NCBI GenBank assembly: GCA_041548245.1
Contig: JBFESZ010000068.1
Location: forward strand, 1 to 11,736
Direction: 5' to 3'
Origin: Sulfurimonadaceae bacterium
GTDB lineage: Bacteria; Campylobacterota; Campylobacteria; Campylobacterales; Sulfurimonadaceae
DNA length: 11,736 nt
In this document: piece by piece, positions 1-11,562 of the stretch
How positions within the stretch are numbered: the stretch's first letter is position 1
Layout: every line of letters begins with the position of its first letter
Notes under the pieces: generated by a model
What the model was told of the DNA's origin: nothing
Seen by the model: only the letters and a program-made list of their open reading frames with translations
Databases searched by the model: none
Program-made: the position numbers and the translations under genes

Positions 1-85
1 ATTTAGTGATATTTAAAACAACATGTCACTTTGCAATATATTTCTTATTATCTATGAATTATGAGCTAATCTTGAAGTATTAATA

Positions 86-175
86 TGTAGGGATATTGGA
101 TTTTAAGCCAATATCTCTACAAAATGTTCTGCTATTTTTTCTATATGTAATATCCCTACAAAATGTAAGGATATT
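86..175. repeat. Four copies of a 12-bp motif (TGTAGGGATATT) forming two inverted repeats; operator-like
   Basis: tgtagggatattgg (86-99) pairs with ccaatatctctaca (108-121), 1 mismatch. aatatccctaca (149-160) pairs with tgtaaggatatt (164-175), 1 mismatch. 110-127 and 149-166 form an 18-bp direct repeat with 1 mismatch. The repeats are seen directly; their function is unknown. Confidence 0.8.
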
Positions 176-190
176 TTTTTGGAGGATATT

Positions 191-238
191 ATGCAAAAAA
201 GAAAACTTCTAGATCAGGCTGTCCAATTATCAAGATAA
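191..238 (+). pseudogene. 15-codon ORF MQKRKLLDQAVQLSR*; possible truncated N-terminus of an integron-type integrase
   Basis: GGAGG at 181-185, ATG at 191, TAA at 236-238. The basic start plus KLLDQ resembles IntI-family N-termini (IntI1 ...VKVLDQLRERIR...). The similarity covers only about 9 residues. Confidence 0.35.
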
Positions 239-338
239 AGCTACCTAGTAGCTAAATTGAAGCATTTAAATAACTAATGGTGATAGGAGAGAGAGTTTAA
301 AGTAGCTATTTCAGGGCTTTTTAGTGTTTTTTAGATGC

Positions 339-355
339 TCCAGTATCCGGAGCCA
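339..355 (+). mobile_element. att-like site: 17-bp match to the 3' end of tRNA-Asn (putative island boundary)
   Basis: TCCAGTATCCGGAGCCA parses as the last T-loop base, the 3' T-stem strand CCAGT (as in E. coli tRNA-Asn), acceptor strand ATCCGGA (complement of a TCCGGAT 5' end, recalled for Campylobacterota tRNA-Asn), discriminator G and CCA. No tRNA body lies upstream. Confidence 0.6.
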
Positions 356-443
356 CTTTTAAACAACCCCTTATACATATATTCCCAAGCAATTTTTTGA
401 AAATAGATGATTTAAATCTACGTTGCCATATTCTTCAGGAGTA

Positions 444-1562
444 TCAGGCCTGGCTCAGAGGCATTTGAATCTTAAAGCATGCCCCATCGTCTTGATTCAT
501 TACTGTGATATTCCCATTCAAATGGTCTTCTATGATCTTTTTGACAATATAGAGACCGATTCCCGTACCGCCTTTGCCCGTTTTGGTCGTAAAATATTTT
601 TCAAAAACCTTATCCAATAAGTTATCATCTATTCCACCGGCATTATCGCATATACTTATCATCAAAGACGTATCATCATGTTTTAAACTCAGCACAATTC
701 TCGGATTTTCTATATTTCTCTCAAGAAGCGCGTCTTGTGCATTGACGAGTATATTGACCAGGACTTGCATCAACTCCCTGACATAAGTACTGATCGGGGT
801 GTCATCAACCTCACAACTCAATTCAACCCCATTGCTTTTAAGGGTTGAGCTTATGATGCTCTGCGTCATATGAACGAGTTCCTGGAGCGTTATGCTCTGC
901 AGCTCTTTGTTCGGTTTGAAGAAGTTTGCAAAGTCTTTGATGATCTTTGAGAGCTCCTGAACCTGGTCATTGACTATATGTGCATGCTCTTTGATCTGTT
1001 CTATATCATATTTATCAAGCTCTATATCAAAGATGATCTTGTTGGCTACCGCTGAAATCGCAGAGAGAGGTTGTTTCCACTGATGTGCTATAACACTGAT
1101 CATATTTCCCATCTCCGCATGTTTTGACTGGGCCATCATGATCTCTTCGTTCTCTTTCAAGAGCAATTCGAGTTCATCCCTGTAAAGCTTAAGTTTGATA
1201 TTGTTTTTTACCCTTGCTTTCACCAAGATAGGGTTGAACGGCTTATAGATATAGTCCACTGCACCAAGGGAGAGGCCCTTTGTCTCACTTTCATCATCGC
1301 TTAAGACCGTTATAAATATGATAGGTATATCTTGTGTCTGTTTATCGGACTTAATACGTTCACACACTTCGTACCCATCCATTTCGGGCATCACGATGTC
1401 AAGCAGTATCATATCGGGCTTATGTTCGGATCTGCATATCTCTATGGCTTTTTTTCCGTTATTGGCGACAGCGATCTCATACTCATCTTGTAAAATATTA
1501 AGGAGTGAATCCAGGTTTGAAGGGGTGTCATCAACAATTAAAACCCTGTTTTTACTCATCAT
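444..1562 (-). CDS. Cytoplasmic hybrid response regulator/histidine kinase (REC-HisKA-HATPase_c)
   Basis: REC motifs VLIVDD, DMILLDIVMPEMDG and YIYKPF. H-box IAHQWKQPL, N-box QVLVNILVNAQDA, G1 DNAGGI, F-box FEKYFTTK, G2 GTGIGL. No TM segment. The start is ATG 1562 or 1559 and overlaps the upstream kinase stop. Confidence 0.93.
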   Translation of the reverse strand: MMSKNRVLIVDDTPSNLDSLLNILQDEYEIAVANNGKKAIEICRSEHKPDMILLDIVMPEMDGYEVCERIKSDKQTQDIPIIFITVLSDDESETKGLSLGAVDYIYKPFNPILVKARVKNNIKLKLYRDELELLLKENEEIMMAQSKHAEMGNMISVIAHQWKQPLSAISAVANKIIFDIELDKYDIEQIKEHAHIVNDQVQELSKIIKDFANFFKPNKELQSITLQELVHMTQSIISSTLKSNGVELSCEVDDTPISTYVRELMQVLVNILVNAQDALLERNIENPRIVLSLKHDDTSLMISICDNAGGIDDNLLDKVFEKYFTTKTGKGGTGIGLYIVKKIIEDHLNGNITVMNQDDGACFKIQMPLSQA

Positions 1563-4500
1563 TATCCCCGTGAATATTGGTGTGATCTTCCAAAACCTGC
1601 ATGATTACCTCTTTGATCCCGTCAACATCATATATGTCGAACAAAGACTCTATTGTATTGATATCCGATTCATTAATGATCCTTCCATTATAACCCTTTA
1701 ACTTTTTAAATAACTGAAGCGACCTAATGATGTCTTTATCCAAATAATCCGCAAGTTCTCGGAGTGTCTCGACCGCTTCATCATCATTAAGCGTATTGAT
1801 GTCTGCATTACTCTGAGGCTTCTGCAGTGAAGCTGTGAAGCTCTCAATCGATCTGACGACCTTCTCATATTCATCCGCTATGCTTTCAAGAGCCTTTGTA
1901 TCAGGCACCTCTTTCCTCTTGAGTTGCGAGTCAAGCGTGTTGAGTGCCTTATACAGCTCAGTCGCACCGAAATTACCGACGATAGCCTTTAACTGATGAA
2001 GCTTTTTCTCAGCTTCTTCTATACTGTTTTGAGCAATCAGCTCCATGACGACTTTAAAACTGTCGCTTTGATGTTGCTCAAACTTGCGTAAAAGTTTGAG
2101 CAACAGGTCCTCATTATGGACAACCCGCTTAAGTGCGATATCCTGATCAATACCATGTAAAGAAGAGTAGTCATAAAGCGACTTCCTCTCTTTTGCAACA
2201 TCACTCTGTTTTATGTCACTCTTTTCTGTGTTCGTTTTCTCTGTACCGAGAAAATCAAGCAGTGTCTCAAAAAGCATCTCCGGATCGATCGGTTTGAAAA
2301 GGTAAGCGTTCATACCTGCCTCAAGGCTTTTGTCAATATCATGTTGACGGACATTCGCACTTAGTCCGATAATCGGAAGCTTGGCATAATAATCATCATT
2401 GAGTACCGACTCGAGCTGTCTGATAAGCTTGGTCGCTTCATTACCGTCAAGCTCAGGCATCTGAACATCCATGAGAATGAGGTCAAACTTGAAAGCCTTG
2501 GCTTTTTCAACAGCTTCATAACCATTTCGCGCACTCTCTATTACCAGCCCCTCCTGCCCCAAAAGGTCCGTGATAAACATGAGATTGATATCATTGTCTT
2601 CAGCGACCAAGATCTTTTTCTCCTGTATTGATTCAAGAGAGATGCTCCTGTCTTTTCTCTTTCGCATGACATCTGAGAGCTCCTTATTACTCATGAGAGC
2701 GTTGAGGATATCTGAGCTTCTCACAGGTTTTACTAGGATGGCTTCTATTTTGCTGTCCTTAAACTCATAATAGATGTCTTCTCTGTTGTAAGCGGTCACG
2801 ATAAAAATCCTTGGTACTTTTTTCAGACCTTTGAGCGTATGAATCCTCTTCGTCGTCTCCAGACCGTCCAGATCAGCCATCTTCCAGTCTAGAAAGACAA
2901 TGTCATAATCACCCTCCTCAATAGCACTGAGTGCCTCTTCTCCACTTGATACGGCATCCCTGCGCAGACCCAAAAGTTCACAGTTTTCAAGCAAAACATT
3001 TCTGGCAGCTTCATTGTCATCGACAATGAGGACTGAGAGGTTCTTTAAGATGCCACTCTTATCAAGTTCCTGCGTAAGCTCGGCCGCATCGAAATCACTG
3101 ACATTATCTAAAGGGATCTCGAAACAAAACGTGCTACCGACACCTTTCGTACTCGACTCAAGCCACAGCTCCCCGCCCATCAGGTTTACCAACCGTGAGC
3201 AGATAGAAAGCCCCAGTCCTGTCCCGCCAAACTTTCTTGTCGTACTTGAATCTGCCTGAGAGAACTCCTCAAATATCTTCTCCCTCTGTTCTTCACTCAT
3301 CCCGATTCCGCTGTCCTGGACACAGAACCTCAACTGCAACTGTTCACTGCCCTTTTGCACACATTCAATACGCAATGTGACGGATCCGTTGTTCGTGAAC
3401 TTGATGGCATTGTTGCACAGGTTGATAAGCACCTGCTCCAGCCTGTGCGGATCACCTTTGAAAAGTTTAGGCAACTCTTTATCTACGAGGACGGAGAAGT
3501 TTAGGTTTTTTGCTTTTGCCTGCACTTCGACAATGTTTTTTAAAGTATCGAGCACTTTATCCAGGTTGAAAGGGATATGCTCTATGTCGAGTTTTCCAGA
3601 CTCTATCTTCGAGAAGTCCAGAATATCATTGATAATATTGAGCAAGGAACTGGCAGCACTTTGTGCCTTCATAACATAATCCGTTTGCTGTGTGTTCAAG
3701 GATGTCTTCTCCAGAAGATAATGCATCCCCATAATCGCATTGATCGGGGTTCTTATCTCATGACTCATGTTTGCCAGAAAATGACTCTTGGCGACATTTG
3801 ACTTCTCGGCATTTACCTTCTCTTCTTTCAACTCATCTGCGATGATTTTTAATTTTTCATTACTCTCTTCAAGTTCGGCTGTCCGCTCTTCTACCCTCTT
3901 TTCAAGCACTTCGTTGACATTTTTAAGCTCATCCTGGCTCTGCTCCAACTGGGAGTTGGTCTGCATCAACACTTTGTTTTGCTCCTCGATAAACTCAAGC
4001 ATACTGTTGAAGGCATGCACGAGTTGACCCACTTCATCCTCACTTTTTTGATCGACGCGCAGTGAATAATCCTTCGAAAGTGCGACCTTTTCAGCCGTTT
4101 TTGTCAAGACAAGAATTGGTTCTGAAATAAACCTCTGCAACCAGGAAGCCAAGATAAAAGAGACAAATGAACCAATCGATATCATTAACGCGGTTAAAAA
4201 AAGAAGATTGAGCCACATCTGGTTAATGCCCTTTAATGACGCGACTATAAAGAGCGTACCTACGACATCCTCATTCATGACAATAGGTTCATAAATCAAC
4301 AACTTGTTATTGACAAAAGACGTCTCGCTCTGTTGCTTAAAGTTTTCAAAATCATATTGGCGCTCGATACCGCTCTCATATTTGGCAAAGAGTCTCTTAT
4401 CCGCACTAAAAATGGCAGCAGCAGTAATAGTCGGTTCTACTTTTAAACCAGAAAGTATCTCTTCCGCACTGCTATTATCTGAGAAGATTACGGCAGCTGT

Positions 4501-4683
4501 GCTCTGTCCGGCTATTACTCTTGCCATAATGCTAAGGTTTGACCTCAACTCCCCTTTTGCCTTGTTATATTCAATGGATACGAAGACGATACCGATAAGC
4601 ACGAGCGTTAAAAAAGAAGCAAATGTAATCATGATCATCAGTTTTGACTTGATTGATGACACTGCTACATTCAAAAATCTCAT
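1552..4683 (-). CDS. Membrane hybrid sensor histidine kinase: TM-CHASE8(YfiN-like)-TM-HAMP-HisKA-HATPase-REC-REC-Hpt
   Basis: TMs at about aa 15-37 and 157-181. Periplasmic NLSIMARVIAGQSTAAVIFSDNSSAEEILSGL...AAAIFSADKRLFAKY resembles the YfiN sensor. HAMP (EPILVL...DEVGQLVHAFNSM), H-box FLANMSHEIRTP, NLCNNAIKFT, DSGIGM, GGTGLGL. REC1 DIVFLDWKM...VKPV, REC2 DLILMDVQMP...FKPI, Hpt HQLKAIVGNFGA. SD AAGGAG at 4688-4693. Confidence 0.93.
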   Translation of the reverse strand: MRFLNVAVSSIKSKLMIMITFASFLTLVLIGIVFVSIEYNKAKGELRSNLSIMARVIAGQSTAAVIFSDNSSAEEILSGLKVEPTITAAAIFSADKRLFAKYESGIERQYDFENFKQQSETSFVNNKLLIYEPIVMNEDVVGTLFIVASLKGINQMWLNLLFLTALMISIGSFVSFILASWLQRFISEPILVLTKTAEKVALSKDYSLRVDQKSEDEVGQLVHAFNSMLEFIEEQNKVLMQTNSQLEQSQDELKNVNEVLEKRVEERTAELEESNEKLKIIADELKEEKVNAEKSNVAKSHFLANMSHEIRTPINAIMGMHYLLEKTSLNTQQTDYVMKAQSAASSLLNIINDILDFSKIESGKLDIEHIPFNLDKVLDTLKNIVEVQAKAKNLNFSVLVDKELPKLFKGDPHRLEQVLINLCNNAIKFTNNGSVTLRIECVQKGSEQLQLRFCVQDSGIGMSEEQREKIFEEFSQADSSTTRKFGGTGLGLSICSRLVNLMGGELWLESSTKGVGSTFCFEIPLDNVSDFDAAELTQELDKSGILKNLSVLIVDDNEAARNVLLENCELLGLRRDAVSSGEEALSAIEEGDYDIVFLDWKMADLDGLETTKRIHTLKGLKKVPRIFIVTAYNREDIYYEFKDSKIEAILVKPVRSSDILNALMSNKELSDVMRKRKDRSISLESIQEKKILVAEDNDINLMFITDLLGQEGLVIESARNGYEAVEKAKAFKFDLILMDVQMPELDGNEATKLIRQLESVLNDDYYAKLPIIGLSANVRQHDIDKSLEAGMNAYLFKPIDPEMLFETLLDFLGTEKTNTEKSDIKQSDVAKERKSLYDYSSLHGIDQDIALKRVVHNEDLLLKLLRKFEQHQSDSFKVVMELIAQNSIEEAEKKLHQLKAIVGNFGATELYKALNTLDSQLKRKEVPDTKALESIADEYEKVVRSIESFTASLQKPQSNADINTLNDDEAVETLRELADYLDKDIIRSLQLFKKLKGYNGRIINESDINTIESLFDIYDVDGIKEVIMQVLEDHTNIHGDNDE

Positions 4684-4897
4684 AACACTCCTTTAATTTC
4701 ATGACACTGGTTATTAATACGGGAAAAAATATTGGTATCCAAACATTATACATACATTTTTTATGAATTGTAATATTTTTTCATAATATAAAATAAAAAG
4801 ACTTTAACATTGCATCTTTTCAAATTTTGATACAATAGGCAAAGTTTTTATAATAATACTTTATTATACTAAAGCCCATAATCTCTAAAGGATCTGT
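4684..4897. promoter_or_regulatory. AT-rich divergent promoter region between the kinase operon and the receptor-yfiR operon
   Basis: + strand: extended -10 TGaTACAAT (4828-4836), TATAAT (4849-4854), SD AAGGA (4888-4892). - strand: TATAAT (4745-4750), SD AAGGAG (4688-4693). Confidence 0.6.
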
Positions 4898-6811
4898 ATG
4901 AAAAGTCTCAATCATCCGCTTCTTTTTGTATCTGCAATGGCTTATTCACTACTTGCTGATGATATCGACGTTTTTGATATCGGTTTTGATGAACTTAAGA
5001 GTATTAAAGTCGAAGTTGCCTCACGTCAGCAAGAGCCTTTAAAGGATGTTCCTGCCACGGTAAGGATAGTGACCGCAGATATGATCAAGCAGCGAGGTTA
5101 TATGAGCATTGAAGAGATCCTTTCTGACCAGCCTGGATTTCAGTTTAGAAATATCAATGGGTTCAACTCCTACACTTTTATGAGGGGTTCTGTGAGTCAA
5201 AACAACCATATTCTGATGATGGTTGACGGGGTACAGATTAATGAGCTCAACTCCGGCGGCTATTACGGAGGGCTGCATTACAACCTTTTTAATGTCAAAC
5301 AGGTGGAGATACTCTATGGACCATCTTCAGCCCTGTATGGAACAAACGCGATATCGGGTATCATAAACATCGTTACCTATTCGCCCAAAGAACGAGCGGC
5401 AAATGCCAATGAGCTAGAGCTCGCTTACGGTTCATTTGACACGGGACTGGCATCATTTAGAAGCGGAGACTATGATGTTCTAAAAGAACTTGGCTATACC
5501 CTTTCCGGCCATTATGTCACAACAAAGAAAGCTGATCTAGCCGGTGCTCAAGGTGACAATAACTGGTATGAGAGTATGGATAATTTCGAAGAGAGCTTCT
5601 CCCTGGAGGGAAAGATCAGCTACAAAGCCTTTGATTTCGGTCTTTTGTTCCAAGACAAACAGACTTCAAGAGCGACCAATTACAGGAGTGTCGGCACGGA
5701 AAAGCATGATTACGGCACACTCTGGCACATCAGTTTTTTAAATGCCTGGGCAAAACATGAGGCGGATTTCAGCGACACTATGAAGATCATCTCAAAACTC
5801 TACTACAGAAACGCCACGGTGCAGGATGACACCATCGCCTATATTGATGAGACACCGCTTCCGGGACAACAAGTCGGCTATTACCGACCAAACTGGCTCA
5901 TCGGCCTGGACGAACAGCTTCAGTTTCAATACTCCGACACCCTGAACCTGACTTTGGGTGTCAGTGCAGAGCATGAAGAGCTCTCAGATGGATTTGGAAT
6001 GACCCACAGTTCATCTGTATCCCTTCCTCCTGAAAAACCCTCTAGAGAAAGCATGTTGTCCAACAACCTTTTAAGTACCTACCTTCAAGTGAGATACGCA
6101 CTGAGCGACTCCCTTTATACTACTGCAGGAGTGCGATACGATCACAGCGACTACTACGGCGAAGTGGCCACGCCGCGTCTGGCCTTTGTCTACACCCATG
6201 ACAAAGGCAATATCAAACTGCTTTACTCCGAAGCCTTTCGTGCTCCTAAACCATGGGACTATCAATATAACAATGCTCTCGAACCAGAGACCATCAACAG
6301 TTATGAATTGGCGGGGAGTTACGAACTCGCCAATAACTTCTACACTCAACTCTCTGTATATCATAATGTCATTGACGACCAAGTAACAGAGGAAAAGACC
6401 TACGGCATTGAGCTTGACCTGCGTTATAAAAGCCGTGACTTCGAAGGCTATGCCAACTATACCTACACCGACAGCCGGGATGAGAACGGACGCAGAGTCG
6501 CCGAAATCGCTGAACACACTCTCAATGCCGGGCTGAACTACGCGTATGATCAACACTGGAAGTTCGACCTGAGGTGGAACTATGTCGGTAGTAAAAAGAA
6601 TGCTTCGACCCTGCCTACAGCAAATGAGACGATCAAGCCCTATATCGTGTTCAACGGACAGCTCTCATATCTTGATCTCAACGGCTTTGATATACACCTG
6701 ATCGCGAAGAACCTACTGGATGAAGAGTATTACCATACTTCCAACAGAAGCGTATCACGCTACAGGCAACCTCAACAGACCATCATCGCGAAAGTCTCCT
6801 ATGCTTTCTAG
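4898..6811 (+). CDS. TonB-dependent outer-membrane receptor (plug + beta-barrel), YfiR-associated type
   Basis: Signal peptide ending SLLA|DD. Plug motifs DVPATVRIVT, ILMMVDG, QVEILYGPSSALYGTNAISGIINIVT. Barrel motifs AGVRYD, AFRAP, LEPET, KNLLDEEY. C-terminal VSYAF beta-signal. SD AAGGA 5 nt upstream. Confidence 0.92.
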   Translation: MKSLNHPLLFVSAMAYSLLADDIDVFDIGFDELKSIKVEVASRQQEPLKDVPATVRIVTADMIKQRGYMSIEEILSDQPGFQFRNINGFNSYTFMRGSVSQNNHILMMVDGVQINELNSGGYYGGLHYNLFNVKQVEILYGPSSALYGTNAISGIINIVTYSPKERAANANELELAYGSFDTGLASFRSGDYDVLKELGYTLSGHYVTTKKADLAGAQGDNNWYESMDNFEESFSLEGKISYKAFDFGLLFQDKQTSRATNYRSVGTEKHDYGTLWHISFLNAWAKHEADFSDTMKIISKLYYRNATVQDDTIAYIDETPLPGQQVGYYRPNWLIGLDEQLQFQYSDTLNLTLGVSAEHEELSDGFGMTHSSSVSLPPEKPSRESMLSNNLLSTYLQVRYALSDSLYTTAGVRYDHSDYYGEVATPRLAFVYTHDKGNIKLLYSEAFRAPKPWDYQYNNALEPETINSYELAGSYELANNFYTQLSVYHNVIDDQVTEEKTYGIELDLRYKSRDFEGYANYTYTDSRDENGRRVAEIAEHTLNAGLNYAYDQHWKFDLRWNYVGSKKNASTLPTANETIKPYIVFNGQLSYLDLNGFDIHLIAKNLLDEEYYHTSNRSVSRYRQPQQTIIAKVSYAF

Positions 6812-7325
6812 GCTTCTTAAGACTCTGTTGTCAGGTTCTTTGCTGCTGGGCATCTGCTTGCATGCCAAAGAACTTCCCGAGTATCAGCTCAAGGCGGGTT
6901 ATATCTACAACATCATGAAGTTCGTCAAGTGGCCCCAAAAAGAGAAGCTTGTTGTGTGTATTTTAGGCGAAAACCCTTTCAAGGGATATCTCGAAGAGAT
7001 GCAGAAAAGAAAAATAGCCGGTATGGACATTGAAGTGGTACATACCTACAGTGCCGCTGAACTTCAAGCATGTGATTTGATCTATGTCAATGTAGCCGAC
7101 TTCAAAAAGATTGAAAACCTCTTTACTCATGTACTGACTATCAGTGATGAAAAAGATTTTCTCGATAATGGTGGAATGATCAAGCTTGTCAAAGAACAAC
7201 AGCAGGTCAAAATCATGCTGAACTATAAAAAGATCAATGCACAAGGCTTTACAATCAGCTCAAAACTTCTTAAGACCTCTATTGTAGGTTTTTATGAGCC
7301 AAATAAGACATCAGAAAAAAAATGA
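6801..7325 (+). CDS. YfiR/HmsC-family (DUF4154) periplasmic regulator
   Basis: ATG 6801 overlaps the receptor stop by 11 nt and puts a Sec signal at the N-terminus (MLSRLLKTLLSGSLLLGICLHA). Family motifs EYQLKAGYIYNIMKFVKWP, VCILGENPF, ACDLIYV, VLTISD..F...GGMIKL and ISSKLL. 174 aa. Confidence 0.88.
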   Translation: MLSRLLKTLLSGSLLLGICLHAKELPEYQLKAGYIYNIMKFVKWPQKEKLVVCILGENPFKGYLEEMQKRKIAGMDIEVVHTYSAAELQACDLIYVNVADFKKIENLFTHVLTISDEKDFLDNGGMIKLVKEQQQVKIMLNYKKINAQGFTISSKLLKTSIVGFYEPNKTSEKK

Positions 7326-7438: not shown

Positions 7439-9049
7439 TTGATTAAACTGGGAATATCTCAAAAACTGAACATCCTTATCATTGGAGTTACGCTGAGCAT
7501 AGTCAGTATATTTTCTGCCTATGTCTTTTTTAATATTTCTGATAATGCCAGAGAACGTGTTAATGAGCATCTCTCCTCCGTGGCTACTTACGAAAAAATT
7601 TATTTGGATTACTTTTTTTCAAGTACGGTAAAGGAATTAAACCTTGTCACCAGCCGTACCCATTTCAGAGAAAACCTGCTTGCTTACCATCAAACACAAG
7701 ATCAGAAATACCTTCACAAGATAGCCAAAATTTTGACAGATGCCAATAATGCAACAGACACCTTTTATTCTTTAACACTTACGACGACTGATGGAAAAAC
7801 CTTATTCAGCAACGATATAAGCGATAAAACTGCCCGCTGTAAAGTCAATCTAACAAATTACCCCCATATCTCTAAGACATATATCCCCATATGTTTCAAA
7901 GAGAAAGACAATGACACATCATACATGAGAATGCGTTCACCCGTTATCCATAATGCAGAGACAATCGCACTCTTATATGCAGCCATCAACCTAAAACCGT
8001 TGGACGAGCTCAGCAATATCCGCAAACGACTGGAGTACAAGACAGCGGATTCGGTTGTTGTCTACTACAGAGATGAAGATGCCCTCTTTCTTACCCCTGT
8101 AACCTATGATGAGAAAGCTGCTTTAACACGTACTATAGCACTTCAGAACATGGATATTTCCTACAACAAGGCACGGAACCACCCTGACGGAGAGTTCATT
8201 ACCGGCTTAGACTATCGCGGTGTACCCGTCTACTCTTATGTCACCTACTTAAGCCAATACAACATCGGTCTCTCTGTCGAATTGGATATGGATGAACTCA
8301 AAGCTATCGAATCCAAAAAAGTCGGTTTTTCACTCTTGATGCTGACTTCTTTAATCATCATGGCAGGAGTTTTCACTGTATTGATGATTAAACAGCTGCT
8401 AAAGCCACTGCACAAGCTGCATGATGTTATTGTCAAACAATCGCTTAGCACAGGAAAGCTTGTACAGTGCAAACATTTGTCCAATGATGAATTTGGAGAA
8501 CTTGCCCATTCGTACAACAAGATGATAGAACGTATTCAAGAGCAGAGTATAACCGACGCGTTGACCCAACTTCACAATAGAAAAGCTTTTAATGAAAGAA
8601 TCGAGGAACTCATTGCTCAATATCACAGGTATCAGATCCCCTTTTCGGTCTTGATGCTCGATATTGACCACTTCAAATCCGTCAATGACACCTATGGACA
8701 TCAGATGGGTGACAAGGTATTGATCGCATTGAGCAACGAGTTAAAATCACACATTCGAAAGAATGACTACGTGTTCAGGTATGGCGGCGAAGAGTTTATC
8801 ATCCTCTTAACGGGCACGACCATAGATCAGGCAAAGATATTTGCAGAGAAGTTAAGGTCATCCGTGCAGGCGACCATCCATGTCATCGAAGAGAGAAAGA
8901 TCACCATCAGTATTGGTGTCTCGGAATTTCATAGAGAAGACAGTTCTGATTCGATCGTAAAAAGGGTAGATGATAACCTTTATCGCGCCAAAGAGAGTGG
9001 CCGTAACCGTGTCTGTATAGATGAGAGCCGCCCCTCTACTCTCAATTGA
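7439..9049 (+). CDS. Membrane diguanylate cyclase (TM-Cache-like-TM-HAMP-GGDEF)
   Basis: Two TMs. Cache-type motif LDYRGVPVYSYVTY...GLSVELD. HAMP (KPLHKL...DEFGELAHSYNKM). TDALTQLHNR, DIDHFKSVNDTYGH, I-site RKND, intact GGEEF active site. Confidence 0.92.
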   Translation: MIKLGISQKLNILIIGVTLSIVSIFSAYVFFNISDNARERVNEHLSSVATYEKIYLDYFFSSTVKELNLVTSRTHFRENLLAYHQTQDQKYLHKIAKILTDANNATDTFYSLTLTTTDGKTLFSNDISDKTARCKVNLTNYPHISKTYIPICFKEKDNDTSYMRMRSPVIHNAETIALLYAAINLKPLDELSNIRKRLEYKTADSVVVYYRDEDALFLTPVTYDEKAALTRTIALQNMDISYNKARNHPDGEFITGLDYRGVPVYSYVTYLSQYNIGLSVELDMDELKAIESKKVGFSLLMLTSLIIMAGVFTVLMIKQLLKPLHKLHDVIVKQSLSTGKLVQCKHLSNDEFGELAHSYNKMIERIQEQSITDALTQLHNRKAFNERIEELIAQYHRYQIPFSVLMLDIDHFKSVNDTYGHQMGDKVLIALSNELKSHIRKNDYVFRYGGEEFIILLTGTTIDQAKIFAEKLRSSVQATIHVIEERKITISIGVSEFHREDSSDSIVKRVDDNLYRAKESGRNRVCIDESRPSTLN

Positions 9050-9764
9050 TTATGGCGTCATGCCATTGTACTAGGGTGAGTCGATACCCTTCTTCGACTG
9101 GAACGACTTCATGACTGTAGATAGGGTTGCTGGGAAAGACGATCATATCCCCCGCTTCGGGAAAAATTCTGATCGGATTGCCATCAACGTCAAAAAGGTA
9201 GTTGAAAAGCAGCTCCCCACCTTTGAACTGCATTCCCTGGGCATCATGTTTTTCAGAAGAAGTCGCAAAAAGGACTGTACTTAGCTTGCGCTGCGGAGCC
9301 ACTTGAAGAAAACCGATCGTCTCACCCATATCATTGACAAGCTCGCTTGAATCATCCGCATGCTTGATATAGAAAGAGCCTTTGGTATATTCAAGCGTCT
9401 GCAGGTCTGTCGATGTCATCAATGCAATATTAAAATAGTTCTCAATAGCCGCCTGATGTGTCTTGAAGCTTAAATCATACGCTTTATGAAACACTTTTGG
9501 AAGCTTATGCAGCACGGTCTTGCGAATGTTCTTGTCGACTTTCGCCTTAAGAAGAGAGTTCATCTCTTTTGTTCTGACCTTGGCTTGCTCCACAGCAGAA
9601 GTTTTACTCGTATATTTAGCAATCTCATCACAGGTTGATGCCGACAAAAAGTTTTTAATGATCAAATAGGGATAGTTATAATAATGATTCGGCATAAGTC
9701 GTGTGTCTAACTTCAAGCTGGCAATAAAATCATCACAGAATACATAGTTGCTTATCTGCTGCAT
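9042..9764 (-). CDS. 2OG-Fe(II) oxygenase (prolyl-4-hydroxylase-like)
   Basis: Y..GSFYIKHAD (HxD), RKLSTVLF, FKGGEL, GDMIVFPS...HEVVPVEEGYRLTLVQW (distal His and 2OG-binding Arg). In-frame ATG 9764 is preferred over TTG 9812; the start is uncertain. Confidence 0.88.
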   Translation of the reverse strand: MQQISNYVFCDDFIASLKLDTRLMPNHYYNYPYLIIKNFLSASTCDEIAKYTSKTSAVEQAKVRTKEMNSLLKAKVDKNIRKTVLHKLPKVFHKAYDLSFKTHQAAIENYFNIALMTSTDLQTLEYTKGSFYIKHADDSSELVNDMGETIGFLQVAPQRKLSTVLFATSSEKHDAQGMQFKGGELLFNYLFDVDGNPIRIFPEAGDMIVFPSNPIYSHEVVPVEEGYRLTLVQWHDAIIN

Positions 9765-9875
9765 GGTATCATCTTTTGTATTAATATTAAAAGAACAGTT
9801 TTTTGCCTTCAAGTTTGAAAGAACCTAAAAAAGCTCAGAAGTATACTTGAGCAATACTTAACAAACACTCTTGCA

Positions 9876-10011: not shown

Positions 10012-11562
10012 TTGATAAGGAATATCATAAATACTTTGCAAATCATCAATTCAAGCAATCGAATCCTATTGATACTTCTGAGCCTTATCGGCTTTATCAC
10101 CATGGTCTTTTTGTATTTGGGGCATTTCCAATACAAATTTGTCCTCAAGACCCTTGTGGATGAAGAACAGAAGATCGCCAGCAAGGTCTATAAAAATACC
10201 TTTAAACACATTGCCAGCCATTATGAATCAATAGCCAATAACATATTGCTCAACAAAGAGGTCATTAATGCTTTTGAAAAGCAGGACAGGGATGAACTCT
10301 TTAAACTGACAGAACCTATATATAAAGAGCTGATCGCTGAAAACCCGTACCTGCACATCATGCACTTTCATACCAAAGAGACCAAGAGTTTTCTGCGTCT
10401 GCACAAACCTGAAAAGTTTGCCGATGACCTGAGCGATATTCGCCATATGATCAACAGTGTCAACCAATTTCACACCAAACAAATCGGTGTCGAAGTCGGT
10501 AGGTATGGTATCTATTACCGAATAGCCCTACCTGTGTTCAATCTCAACAAAGAGTATCTTGGAGCATTTGAGTTTGGTATCAATATCGACTATATCTTCA
10601 ATCTATTCAATAACGATTATGGGTTTGAGACTATTCTGCTCTTGCATAAAGATATCTTCGAGATGATATACGAAAACAACAAAGACCTGAAATACCGATC
10701 CTTTTCTGATCAGTTTTATGTCGTTATACCCGAGCATAATCTAAGCCGGATATACACATCACTTATCCACCATCTATCCACATCGGTGCTCACCTCAAAA
10801 TATGAATTGATTGAAAATGACCTCAATGACGATGTCGTCTTTAAAGTCACCGAACTCACCAGTGTCACCGGTGAAGACATCGGAGAGATCATCTTTGTCA
10901 AAAACCTGAACTACTATACGGACCGAATAGAGCTTATCCAGAACATTTCCATAGTATTGGGCATATTTATGATTCTGTTTTCTGTCTACTTCTTACGCAA
11001 ACTCTTCAAAAGTTTCATGGAGACGATACATAGCTATCAGAGTAAGATAGAGATCAAAAACCGTTCACTCTCAAAACTGGTCAATCTTGACCACCTGACC
11101 AAGATCAACAACAGAAAGTCCATGGAGACGATCATGGAAAACGAGATCAAACGAGTGAGCCGTTACAACAAACCGATGTCCATCATCATGTTTGATATCG
11201 ATGACTTTAAATCGATTAATGACGACTATGGACATAATGTGGGTGACAAGGTCCTCAAAGAGATTGCCAAGGTCGTACTTTCTGTGATCAGAGATACAGA
11301 TCATTTTGGAAGATGGGGTGGAGAAGAGTTCATACTGCTTCCAACCGAGACCTCACTCGAGGATGCTACCGTGTTGGCCGAAAAGATCAGAAAAGCGATA
11401 TTGGCACATGATCTCATTGACTCACGCAGAGTAAGTTGTAGTATTGGTGTTGCACAGTATCAGCAAGATGAAGACCTAGACATTTTAGTACACAATGCAG
11501 ACCTTGCAATGTACGATGCTAAAAACAGTGGAAAGAACCGGGTTGTTGTTCACAACCTATAA
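10012..11562 (+). CDS. Membrane diguanylate cyclase (TM-dCache_3-like-TM-GGDEF)
   Basis: Two TMs. Periplasmic HFHTKETKSFLRLHKPEKFADDL...GVEVGRYGIYYRIALPV is typical of dCache_3. DHLTKINNR, DIDDFKSINDDYGH, I-site RDTD, GGEEF. The start is uncertain (TTG 10012 or TTG 10036). Confidence 0.9.
   Translation: MIRNIINTLQIINSSNRILLILLSLIGFITMVFLYLGHFQYKFVLKTLVDEEQKIASKVYKNTFKHIASHYESIANNILLNKEVINAFEKQDRDELFKLTEPIYKELIAENPYLHIMHFHTKETKSFLRLHKPEKFADDLSDIRHMINSVNQFHTKQIGVEVGRYGIYYRIALPVFNLNKEYLGAFEFGINIDYIFNLFNNDYGFETILLLHKDIFEMIYENNKDLKYRSFSDQFYVVIPEHNLSRIYTSLIHHLSTSVLTSKYELIENDLNDDVVFKVTELTSVTGEDIGEIIFVKNLNYYTDRIELIQNISIVLGIFMILFSVYFLRKLFKSFMETIHSYQSKIEIKNRSLSKLVNLDHLTKINNRKSMETIMENEIKRVSRYNKPMSIIMFDIDDFKSINDDYGHNVGDKVLKEIAKVVLSVIRDTDHFGRWGGEEFILLPTETSLEDATVLAEKIRKAILAHDLIDSRRVSCSIGVAQYQQDEDLDILVHNADLAMYDAKNSGKNRVVVHNL

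Follow-up and report, generated by a model that had tools for sequence, protein, structure and literature searches.

A divergent variant of the TonB-dependent receptor, YfiR-like protein and CHASE8 kinase module in a Sulfurimonadaceae bacterium: a possible envelope-spanning sensor

Introduction

Among described envelope-signalling systems, YfiBNR of Pseudomonas aeruginosa offers a close point of comparison for the locus treated here, which consists of a TonB-dependent receptor, a YfiR-like periplasmic protein and a hybrid histidine kinase encoded on an 11,736-nucleotide (nt) stretch of Sulfurimonadaceae DNA (assembly GCA_041548245.1, contig JBFESZ010000068.1; the whole stretch is hereafter called the window). 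In YfiBNR a periplasmic PF13689 protein, YfiR, is paired with the inner-membrane CHASE8-HAMP sensor YfiN, whose output is a GGDEF domain, and the OmpA-like YfiB serves as outer-membrane partner of YfiR; HmsCDE in Yersinia and DgcN/YfiR/YfiB in Escherichia coli are its counterparts. The window likewise encodes a periplasmic PF13689 protein and an inner-membrane CHASE8-HAMP sensor, but its output is a hybrid kinase phosphorelay rather than GGDEF, and no OmpA-like YfiB is found among the seven long open reading frames (ORFs) of the window or among 118 ORFs from the flanks of the module in related loci. As argued below, control of the kinase by the YfiR-like protein is very probable, and a more tentative case can be made for the receptor as the outermost part of the same sensor.

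The YfiR fold has been described as resembling one lobe of a periplasmic ligand-binding protein, with a β7/α3/α4 region to which YfiB is bound by strand addition and which is also the predicted binding site for YfiN, and with a Cys145-Cys152 disulfide reported to be important (PMC4655355). On the sensor side, the predicted YfiR site is an ‘AAVVF’ motif in the periplasmic domain of YfiN, according to a 2012 paper in which YfiR-YfiN[PAS/HAMP] cores are presented as a modular system with a wide distribution in distant phyla; most of these cores lack YfiB, and their outputs comprise kinases, hybrid kinases, HPt, GGDEF-EAL and chemoreceptor (MCP) modules, including a Thauera system (PMC3375315). 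The loci considered here show the output range given there. Since the term ‘TonB’ is absent from the main text of PMC3375315, the receptor link is not described in that text.

A receptor enters the picture by two other routes. NCBIfam release 20 contains three consecutive models, NF053590 (TOL_0244 receptor), NF053591 (TOL_0243 YfiR-like) and NF053592 (associated kinase), so the neighbourhood has been noticed by curators; TOL_0244 of Thalassolituus oleivorans is reported to be up sevenfold on n-C28, and has been likened to OmpS of Alcanivorax dieselolei (PMC6304351). As a hint at a ligand, long-chain alkanes concern the TOL_0244 family alone. In Cycloclasticus sp. P1 the TonB-dependent receptor PahS binds polycyclic aromatic hydrocarbons (PAHs) and the 318-aa periplasmic protein PahP (92 nM for PahS-PahP, ligand-modulated), PahP in turn binds the kinase PahK, and PAH shifts these affinities; signalling of PahS/PahP/PahK/PahR across both membranes was reported from surface plasmon resonance, co-immunoprecipitation, Förster resonance energy transfer and two-hybrid experiments (PMC10570129). 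As in the present locus, a receptor without an extracytoplasmic function (ECF) sigma partner, a protein of the periplasm and a histidine kinase are neighbours there. Compared by published description, PahP differs from the window protein in being a two-lobed substrate-binding protein of 318 aa, and PahK is said to have no periplasmic sensor domain.

Two better-known arrangements share single aspects with this locus. FecA/FecR/FecI also has a TonB-dependent receptor as the outermost sensor of an envelope relay, but the STN domain, ECF sigma factor and anti-sigma factor of that system have no counterpart in the window. LuxP/LuxQ and TorT/TorS are hybrid kinases under the control of a periplasmic binding protein; there too the state of the unorthodox or hybrid kinase depends on a soluble protein of the periplasm, albeit with another periplasmic fold and another sensor domain, and without an outer-membrane receptor.

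No paper on the combination of receptor, YfiR-like protein and kinase was found in a literature search whose coverage left out most subscription journals. An earlier note on this DNA, made from the sequence alone, had presented the system as a ‘rewired’ YfiBNR. As a claim of novelty this was overstated, given the YfiB-less cores with kinase output in print since 2012 (PMC3375315), the NCBIfam trio, and PahS/PahP/PahK as published (PMC10570129). The module is real and widespread, and is already recognised in annotation and partly in print. What the window contributes is a divergent variant of it, with a receptor outside the TOL_0244 family, a YfiR-like protein below its family cut-off, a kinase operon transcribed divergently, and a hybrid kinase that comes with a probable HPt domain and a separate REC-kinase.

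Organization of the locus

The genes in question form two divergent pairs around a 214-bp spacer (4684..4897), each pair having an 11-nt stop/start overlap. Domain scans (Pfam and NCBIfam) were run on all seven long ORFs of the window, and the features on which the argument depends are these:

444..1562, minus strand: REC-HisKA-HATPase protein (REC-kinase), 372 aa, assigned by Pfam
1552..4683, minus strand: hybrid sensor histidine kinase, probably of the unorthodox type, 1043 aa, with a first transmembrane segment (TM1), CHASE8, TM2, HAMP, HisKA, HATPase, REC, REC and a probable HPt
4246..4557, minus strand: CHASE8 periplasmic sensor domain of the kinase, aa 43-146 (Pfam PF17152, E 5.6e-19)
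4483..4497, minus strand: A63-A64-V65-I66-F67 motif in CHASE8, counterpart of the predicted YfiR-binding ‘AAVVF’ site of YfiN
1858..2094, minus strand: probable HPt domain, kinase aa 864-942 (PF01627, sub-threshold)
4684..4897, no strand: AT-rich divergent control region of 214 bp, the spacer between the two pairs
4898..6811, plus strand: TonB-dependent receptor, 637 aa, with signal peptide, TonB-box region, plug, barrel and C-terminal Phe
5003..5023, plus strand: TonB-box-like I-K-V-E-V-A-S, receptor aa 36-42, preceded by a D-E-L-K-S stretch
6801..7325, plus strand: YfiR-like periplasmic protein, 174 aa, PF13689, signal peptide at about aa 1-22

The receptor stop (TAG, 6809-6811) overlaps the ATG of the YfiR-like gene at 6801, and the hybrid-kinase stop (TAA, 1554-1552) overlaps the REC-kinase ATG at 1562. 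The mechanically called ORF of the YfiR-like gene begins at 6720, whereas a start at ATG 6801 yields a signal peptide and agrees with the point at which the proteins of close relatives begin, so that a protein of 174 aa results. ORFs of this length with such strong matches to known families are not products of chance, and the gene arrangement is real. The two divergent, overlapping pairs and their 214-bp intergenic region had been described in the earlier note, and the ORF coordinates and 11-nt overlaps agree with that description, as the Pfam scans do with its domain assignments, including CHASE8 (placed here at kinase aa 43-146) and DUF4154 (PF13689). Its statement that the window lacks YfiB, STN, ECF sigma and anti-sigma also holds, in that no STN, ECF sigma, anti-sigma or OmpA-like domain was found in the seven ORFs scanned with Pfam and NCBIfam. 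Absent from that note were the probable HPt domain at the kinase C-terminus and a cyclase gene 3' of the YfiR-like gene.

The YfiR-like protein: family and candidate binding surfaces

The periplasmic protein matches PF13689 (DUF4154) with 116 bits against a cut-off of 24.9 (E 1.9e-33), and on inspection its N-terminus from ATG 6801 reads as a signal peptide, a basic and then a hydrophobic stretch ending in L-H-A before K-E. Its place in narrower families is less secure, with 77.8-78.4 bits against NF053591 (cut-off 125) and 38.2-38.8 bits against NF053586, the canonical YfiR model (cut-off 85); one relative is 61% identical to it. The family at large is extensive, with 29,918 cluster representatives matched at E<=1e-3 in a full-library profile search, 12,018 of them at E<=1e-30.

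Searched alone against the PDB, the window protein has no match at E<=1; a profile of 83 YfiR-like members matches the solved structure of P. aeruginosa YfiR (4yn7, E 4e-11). Conservation among these 83 members is concentrated in an N-terminal helix (residues 27-45, E27-Y28...K31-A32...N37-F38...F41-V42-x-W44-P45), in the blocks G56...P59-F60, C91 and L112-T-V-S-D...F120...G124-G125-x-I127, and at the C-terminal positions N141 and L150-x-I-S-S-K-L-L (152-157). In the profile alignment I127 corresponds to Phe151 of YfiR and the C-terminal block to its residues 165-181, and the most conserved blocks coincide with helix α1 and with the floor and walls of the C-terminal β7/α3/α4 hydrophobic pocket. 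As in YfiBNR, then, the best-conserved part of the protein is the surface by which YfiR engages its partners. A departure from canonical YfiR concerns the structural disulfide Cys145-Cys152, which is missing in all 83 members, none having a cysteine in the aligned columns. The C53/C91 pair of the window protein aligns with the redox-sensitive Cys71/Cys110 of YfiR; C91 is present in 82 of the 83 members and the first cysteine in 38.

P0142, P0152 and about 20 other proteins (340-380 aa) contain two tandem YfiR-like domains and would resemble a two-lobed periplasmic binding protein.

The hybrid kinase and the REC-kinase

The earlier note's view that a YfiN-type sensor is here attached to a kinase instead of GGDEF is supported by the domain order of the hybrid kinase, in which CHASE8 (43-146) and HAMP (181-230) are followed by HisKA (298-363), HATPase (410-526), two REC stretches (all Pfam) and the probable HPt. 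It is the sole CHASE8 protein among the seven window ORFs, and the only window member of the NCBIfam trio above its cut-off, if marginally (NF053592, cut-off 194: 194.5 bits for the full protein, 199.2 bits for aa 1-235). The DgcN/YfiN model matches its N-terminus (E 2.3e-26), and over the transmitter part the kinase resembles the TorS, BarA and LuxQ models of NCBIfam, the BarA model extending over aa 10-927 with 477 bits; the BarA and TorS matches are both below cut-off.

Within CHASE8 the A-A-V-I-F sequence is equated with the ‘AAVVF’ site by motif and position rather than by direct alignment to YfiN, so that the sensor keeps an AAVVF-type motif. Among 72 sensors aligned in these columns, A63 is found in 60, A64 in 65, L, V or I at position 65 in all 72, and F67 in 71.

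For the C-terminal 224 aa of the kinase the best Pfam match is Hpt (PF01627, aa 864-942, E 2.9e-4, 21.5 bits against a cut-off of 24.6), and by inspection an H-x-L-K-x-x-x-G-N-F-G stretch in this region reads like an HPt histidine site. The REC-kinase comprises REC, HisKA (23.4 bits, below the cut-off of 26.9) and HATPase according to Pfam, and is likely the next station of the phosphorelay. The same REC-HisKA-HATPase architecture follows the sensor gene in two of the related loci described below (L035 and L070; 381 and 385 aa), each protein being 26% identical to that of the window.

Conservation of the three genes

One genome per species was scanned with a nine-sequence YfiR-like alignment, giving 571 confirmed relatives, of which the best 80 loci (designated by L numbers) were kept. 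These contain 82 YfiR-like genes, and the counts that follow apply to the nearest subfamily of the window protein, not to DUF4154 as a whole; ORFs in the loci were called mechanically, a crude procedure, and classified by phmmer against the window domains. The YfiR-like proteins are 27-38% identical to that of the window, and the loci span Acidobacteriota, Verrucomicrobiota, Bacteroidota, Nitrospirota, Gemmatimonadota, Competibacteraceae, Proteobacteria and others. Among cultured organisms the triad occurs in Thauera terpenica 58Eu (L073), Terrimonas sp. R1 (L013), Oleiharenicola lentus (L028) and Thalassolituus oleivorans MIL-1.

A CHASE8-HAMP sensor gene lies directly 3' of the YfiR-like gene and on the same strand in 75 of the 82 cases; in three it is elsewhere in the locus, in three there is none, and in one the contig leaves no room. 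A receptor gene is found beside 66 of the 82, directly 5' on the same strand in 61 and divergent in five, with another four elsewhere in the locus and seven lacking room, and the complete co-directional triad is present in 55. Refinement with Pfam showed that two of the receptors counted as elsewhere (L026, L029) are split receptor genes directly 5', that two of the cases without room (L070, L080) are receptor barrel fragments at a contig edge, and that L063 has a receptor fragment. The expectation voiced in the earlier note, that the three families are conserved together, is thus confirmed by these counts. Spacing within the triad is often tight: no more than 20 nt separate the receptor stop from a plausible start of the YfiR-like gene in 46 of 60 loci (an upper bound, as the nearest start was chosen), and the YfiR-like stop from the start of the sensor gene in 65 of 70. 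Flanks outside the triad are not conserved, and the 118 flanking ORFs of related loci contain no OmpA-like, TonB/ExbBD, ECF sigma or FecR-type domains.

The family assignments are uniform. CHASE8 and HAMP are detected by Pfam in all 72 sensor N-termini (the window and 71 of the 75, four with short matches being left out), and among 64 receptors (the window and 63 others, two cut by contig ends having been dropped) the plug is found in every one and the barrel in 59. No STN domain was seen in these 64 receptors, most of whose N-termini were trimmed to the matched region, nor in three ORFs with long N-termini that were scanned whole. The NCBIfam trio describes the same proteins, NF053591 matching 83 of 83 YfiR-like proteins, NF053592 72 of 72 sensors and NF053590 62 of 64 receptors (E<=1e-30). 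The window departs from that trio in its divergent kinase and in a receptor and YfiR-like protein that score below the cut-offs.

Outputs are modular. The sensors beside YfiR-like genes are mostly plain kinases (about 40), with about 22 hybrid kinases; versions with extra PAS or GAF domains also occur. L055 (3-4556) has receptor, YfiR-like gene and a CHASE8-HAMP-GGDEF-EAL gene in a row, combining a YfiN-like output with a TonB-dependent receptor, and in L072 (4980-7608) the YfiR-like gene is followed by a CHASE8-HAMP-MCP chemoreceptor, with no receptor gene in the 4.9 kb upstream. The product of the gene that follows the sensor is a single REC in 16 loci, REC-GGDEF in three, REC-PAS-GGDEF-EAL in four, REC-HisKA-HATPase in two and REC-GerE in one. 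L001 (5721-8474, 10912-16457) contains two receptor/YfiR-like modules with receptors of different clades and a kinase only after the second, and in L039 (7204-8495) a single hybrid kinase gene follows two YfiR-like genes in tandem, as in the Thauera case of PMC3375315.

Several neighbours of individual triads may be recorded here. A gene for a FIST-domain protein occupies the usual receptor place directly 5' of the YfiR-like gene in L067 (6292-7482). In Opitutaceae and other Verrucomicrobiota a REC-GerE (LuxR-type) regulator is encoded just 5' of the receptor (L028:5240-5902, L032:5286-5969, L045:5096-5947, L062:3012-3704), and these regulators are candidate cognate regulators of the plain kinases in those loci. 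MlaD-domain genes stand beside the triad in L001 (4083-4523), L027 (10065-11578) and L053 (10085-11668), accompanied by ABC ATPase genes in the latter two; they could hint at traffic of lipids or hydrophobic compounds, or be coincidental.

Ten longer proteins with PF13689 were found, and seven of these sequences were read. Three receptor/YfiR-like fusions (P0144, P0146, P0147) and two YfiR-like/CHASE8 fusions (P0148, P0149) were rejected as evidence of contact on account of garbled, frameshift-like junctions, and P0145 was rejected because its fusion, though in frame, would have an inconsistent membrane topology; P0150, also listed with barrel domains, is outside the seven. The long fusions are treated as assembly or gene-call artefacts that speak for adjacency only. 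An apparent receptor-YfiR-like fusion ORF in L017 proved to be an artefact of runs of N.

The receptor and its exchange

The window receptor has the Pfam domains Plug (48-155) and barrel (245-594), and inspection reveals a terminal Phe and the segment I-K-V-E-V-A-S at aa 36-42, a putative TonB box by its likeness to known TonB boxes. With plug, barrel, TonB-box-like segment and C-terminal Phe intact, the protein looks transport-competent as far as its sequence can tell. It scores only 102.5 bits against NF053590 (TOL_0244 family, cut-off 645), and its scores against generic heme and siderophore receptor models are as high or higher. Two relatives are 76% and 72% identical to it, 117 further relatives from many phyla are listed at 44-51% identity, and 1929 proteins match at E<=0.001; identity to the receptors beside YfiR-like genes in the 80 loci is only 18-28%.

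Tree and NCBIfam scores together divide the receptors of the loci into a large clade in or near the TOL_0244 family (808.9 bits in L049, 774.7 in L013 and 631.5 in L056, against the cut-off of 645) and a looser second set at 102-206 bits (L036, L012, L001a, L077, L042, L039, L019 and the window clade), for which generic heme, B12 or siderophore models score as well or better. An N-terminal D-L-x-x-L-S-L-E-E-L-M-N-I-E-V-T-S region, in the neighbourhood of the TonB box, is common to both receptor clades, and the I-K-V-E-V-A-S of the window aligns with I-E-V-T-S-V-S in receptors linked to YfiR-like genes as well as in the 44-51% relatives. In the YfiR-like tree, genes with receptors of the second set are scattered among those with TOL_0244-type ones, so that the tree does not track the receptor clade. 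Pairwise distances over 56 triads correlate well between the YfiR-like protein and the CHASE8 domain (r 0.75) and between the YfiR-like protein and the transmembrane plus HAMP part of the sensor (TM+HAMP, r 0.73). Tree and distance pattern together indicate that the YfiR-like protein and the sensor travel as a unit, the receptor having been replaced several times.

Control region and neighbouring genes

The 214-bp spacer contains the top sigma-70-like site of the whole window (plus strand, 4827..4854, 11/12), facing the receptor, and a second such site (minus strand, 4774..4745, 10/12) facing the kinase; window-wide, sigma-70-like sites are not above shuffled sequence (33 vs 29.3 +/- 5.2). A Fur box was sought in the spacer, and its best site, with 7 of 19 mismatches, is typical of shuffles. 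Rfam has no family at E<=1 anywhere in the window, which also contains no tRNA genes. The kinase operon may end at a terminator-like hairpin (253..239, minus strand), and positions 1..443 have no ORF of at least 80 aa beyond the REC-kinase. Downstream of the YfiR-like gene lies one further element with some bearing on the module:

7439..9049, plus strand: membrane diguanylate cyclase with a Cache-like part, HAMP and GGDEF (GGEEF, RxxD), assigned by Pfam

This Cache/HAMP/GGDEF gene begins 113 nt 3' of the YfiR-like gene on the same strand, the gap being free of terminator-like sites, and is possibly co-transcribed with it; its membership in the module is uncertain. The cyclase is not the expected partner of the YfiR-like protein, because its sensor part is Cache-like and not CHASE8. 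The dCache_1 match of this cyclase is sub-threshold; a second cyclase (10012..11562, plus strand) is of the dCache_3-GGDEF type. Both have the GGEEF active-site motif with an RxxD site five residues upstream, and cyclases and kinases together give the window the character of a dense signalling island. A gene of the 2OG-Fe(II) oxygenase family (9042..9812, minus strand) is convergent with the first cyclase gene, the two ends overlapping by 8 nt (9042..9049).

A model for the module and its alternatives

By analogy with YfiR and YfiN, the exported YfiR-like protein very probably controls the hybrid kinase of the divergent operon by binding to its CHASE8 domain, a core claim for which homology, the conservation of surfaces and a nearly universal gene adjacency provide good support. 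The phosphoryl path predicted from the domain architecture would lead from HisKA to REC, to the probable HPt and on to the REC of the co-transcribed REC-kinase, which would signal to a regulator encoded outside the window. Upstream of the core, the input would come from the TonB-dependent receptor translationally coupled to the YfiR-like gene, and we strongly infer this role of the receptor from conserved adjacency, from gene overlap and from its re-recruitment after exchange.

How such an input might be conveyed can be outlined on the basis of the observed gene anatomy, family memberships, co-conservation of the three genes and conservation of the YfiR binding surfaces known from Pseudomonas; each binding event in the outline, the direction of regulation and the ligand itself are predictions. 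The ligand-loaded receptor would expose its periplasmic N-terminal (TonB-box) region, this region would capture or release the YfiR-like protein, and the latter would partition between the outer-membrane receptor and the kinase. Capture or release is preferred because the YfiR-like protein does not track receptor type and because YfiR binds its outer-membrane partner with the same surface; the absence of receptor-clade tracking, together with the shared N-terminal TonB-box region, fits the read-out of a generic receptor feature. The whole reading, an envelope-spanning three-part sensor running from receptor through YfiR-like protein to kinase by such partitioning, is plausible yet tentative. 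The central proposal of the earlier note, YfiR partner switching with the receptor in the place of YfiB, is likewise a hypothesis.

A number of observations weigh against it. Distances of the YfiR-like protein correlate only moderately with those of the receptor (plug, r 0.46; barrel, r 0.49; partial r given the sensor, 0.12), and there is no sign of a co-evolving interface between the two. Even the correlation between the YfiR-like protein and the sensor is not interface-specific, since the cytoplasmic TM+HAMP part reaches 0.73; a value as high as that of CHASE8 (0.75) points to joint inheritance and not to an interface, and the mirror-tree approach was therefore rejected as interface evidence. 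The window receptor and YfiR-like protein are both below the NCBI family cut-offs, and the window kinase lies outside the receptor operon, in a divergent arrangement seen in none of the 80 loci. The N-terminal receptor motif occurs also in the numerous 44-51% relatives, which may or may not stand beside YfiR-like genes, and is not a mark of signalling receptors. Finally, five of the 75 YfiR-like genes with room (at least 1900 nt) have no receptor (L022, L043, L060, L067 and L072, one of them the MCP version), so the core of YfiR-like protein and sensor can work without one. The co-inheritance pattern in itself neither proves nor disproves contact between the YfiR-like protein and the receptor, and receptor swapping is no less compatible with a generic read-out or a loose functional tie than with sequestration.

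A rival reading is a ligand hand-off, in which the receptor imports a compound at the expense of TonB energy, the YfiR-like protein binds it, and only the loaded or only the empty form engages CHASE8, any contact with the receptor being transient. The same logic has been reported for PahS/PahP/PahK, where a periplasmic protein binds the ligand (PMC10570129), and the likeness of YfiR to one lobe of a ligand-binding protein (PMC4655355), a receptor that looks competent for transport, and the weak co-variation with it, which fits a link through a ligand rather than an interface, all speak for this possibility. It is nonetheless on the unlikely side: the YfiR-like protein is a single domain of 150 aa, against the 318-aa two-lobed PahP, its invariant residues are either common to canonical YfiR, which has no receptor partner, or located on the protein-binding surface, with no family-specific pocket evident, and the swapping of receptor clades without matching changes in the YfiR-like tree is awkward if this protein carries ligand specificity. 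In another rival reading, the receptor may be no input at all but merely co-expressed or regulated uptake, the YfiR-like protein and CHASE8 sensing a periplasmic condition such as redox, envelope stress or protein folding. Self-sensing has indeed been proposed for YfiNR pairs without YfiB, many cores lacking an outer-membrane partner (PMC3375315), and the retention of C53/C91 in the window, the five receptor-less loci with room upstream and the exchangeability of the receptor point in the same direction. We judge this unlikely in view of the receptor genes standing, often with overlap, beside 66 of 82 YfiR-like genes across several phyla where flanks beyond the triad are not conserved, of a re-recruitment after exchange that is hard to explain without a functional tie, and of the first cysteine of the pair being found in only 38 of 83 members.

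It would be highly improbable, lastly, for the two operons of the window to be unrelated, with the YfiR-like protein acting on a CHASE8 protein encoded elsewhere in the genome or on the product of the downstream cyclase gene. Such a separation would fit a kinase transcribed apart from the YfiR-like gene, where 75 of the 82 related genes have a co-transcribed sensor, and a cyclase gene that follows with no terminator-like site between; yet the N-terminal part of the kinase reaches the curated threshold for kinases associated with YfiR-like proteins and carries the AAV(I)F motif, no second CHASE8 protein is encoded by the seven window ORFs, and the cyclase is Cache-like.

Implications

The window adds a divergent example rather than a new principle. 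It bears on a question that has stood since PMC3375315, namely which signal feeds YfiR-type systems that lack YfiB: the receptor beside 66 of 82 YfiR-like genes, and the roughly 12,000 clusters of the family, point to extracellular input by way of a receptor without STN/ECF-sigma machinery. Were the link to run through an imported ligand, the PahS/PahP/PahK scheme would be generalised; were it physical, it would constitute a widespread second mode of receptor-based envelope signalling and offer a handle on the ligands of orphan receptors and kinases. A bolder and rather doubtful extension would make YfiR-like proteins general adaptors that read the loading of TonB-dependent receptors, adding a strand to the released one of the TonB box as YfiR does on YfiB, and relay this state to CHASE8 sensors whose output is a kinase, a cyclase or a chemoreceptor. 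If true, it would amount to a second, sigma-factor-independent route of cell-surface signalling, operating with interchangeable receptors in hundreds of species from many phyla.

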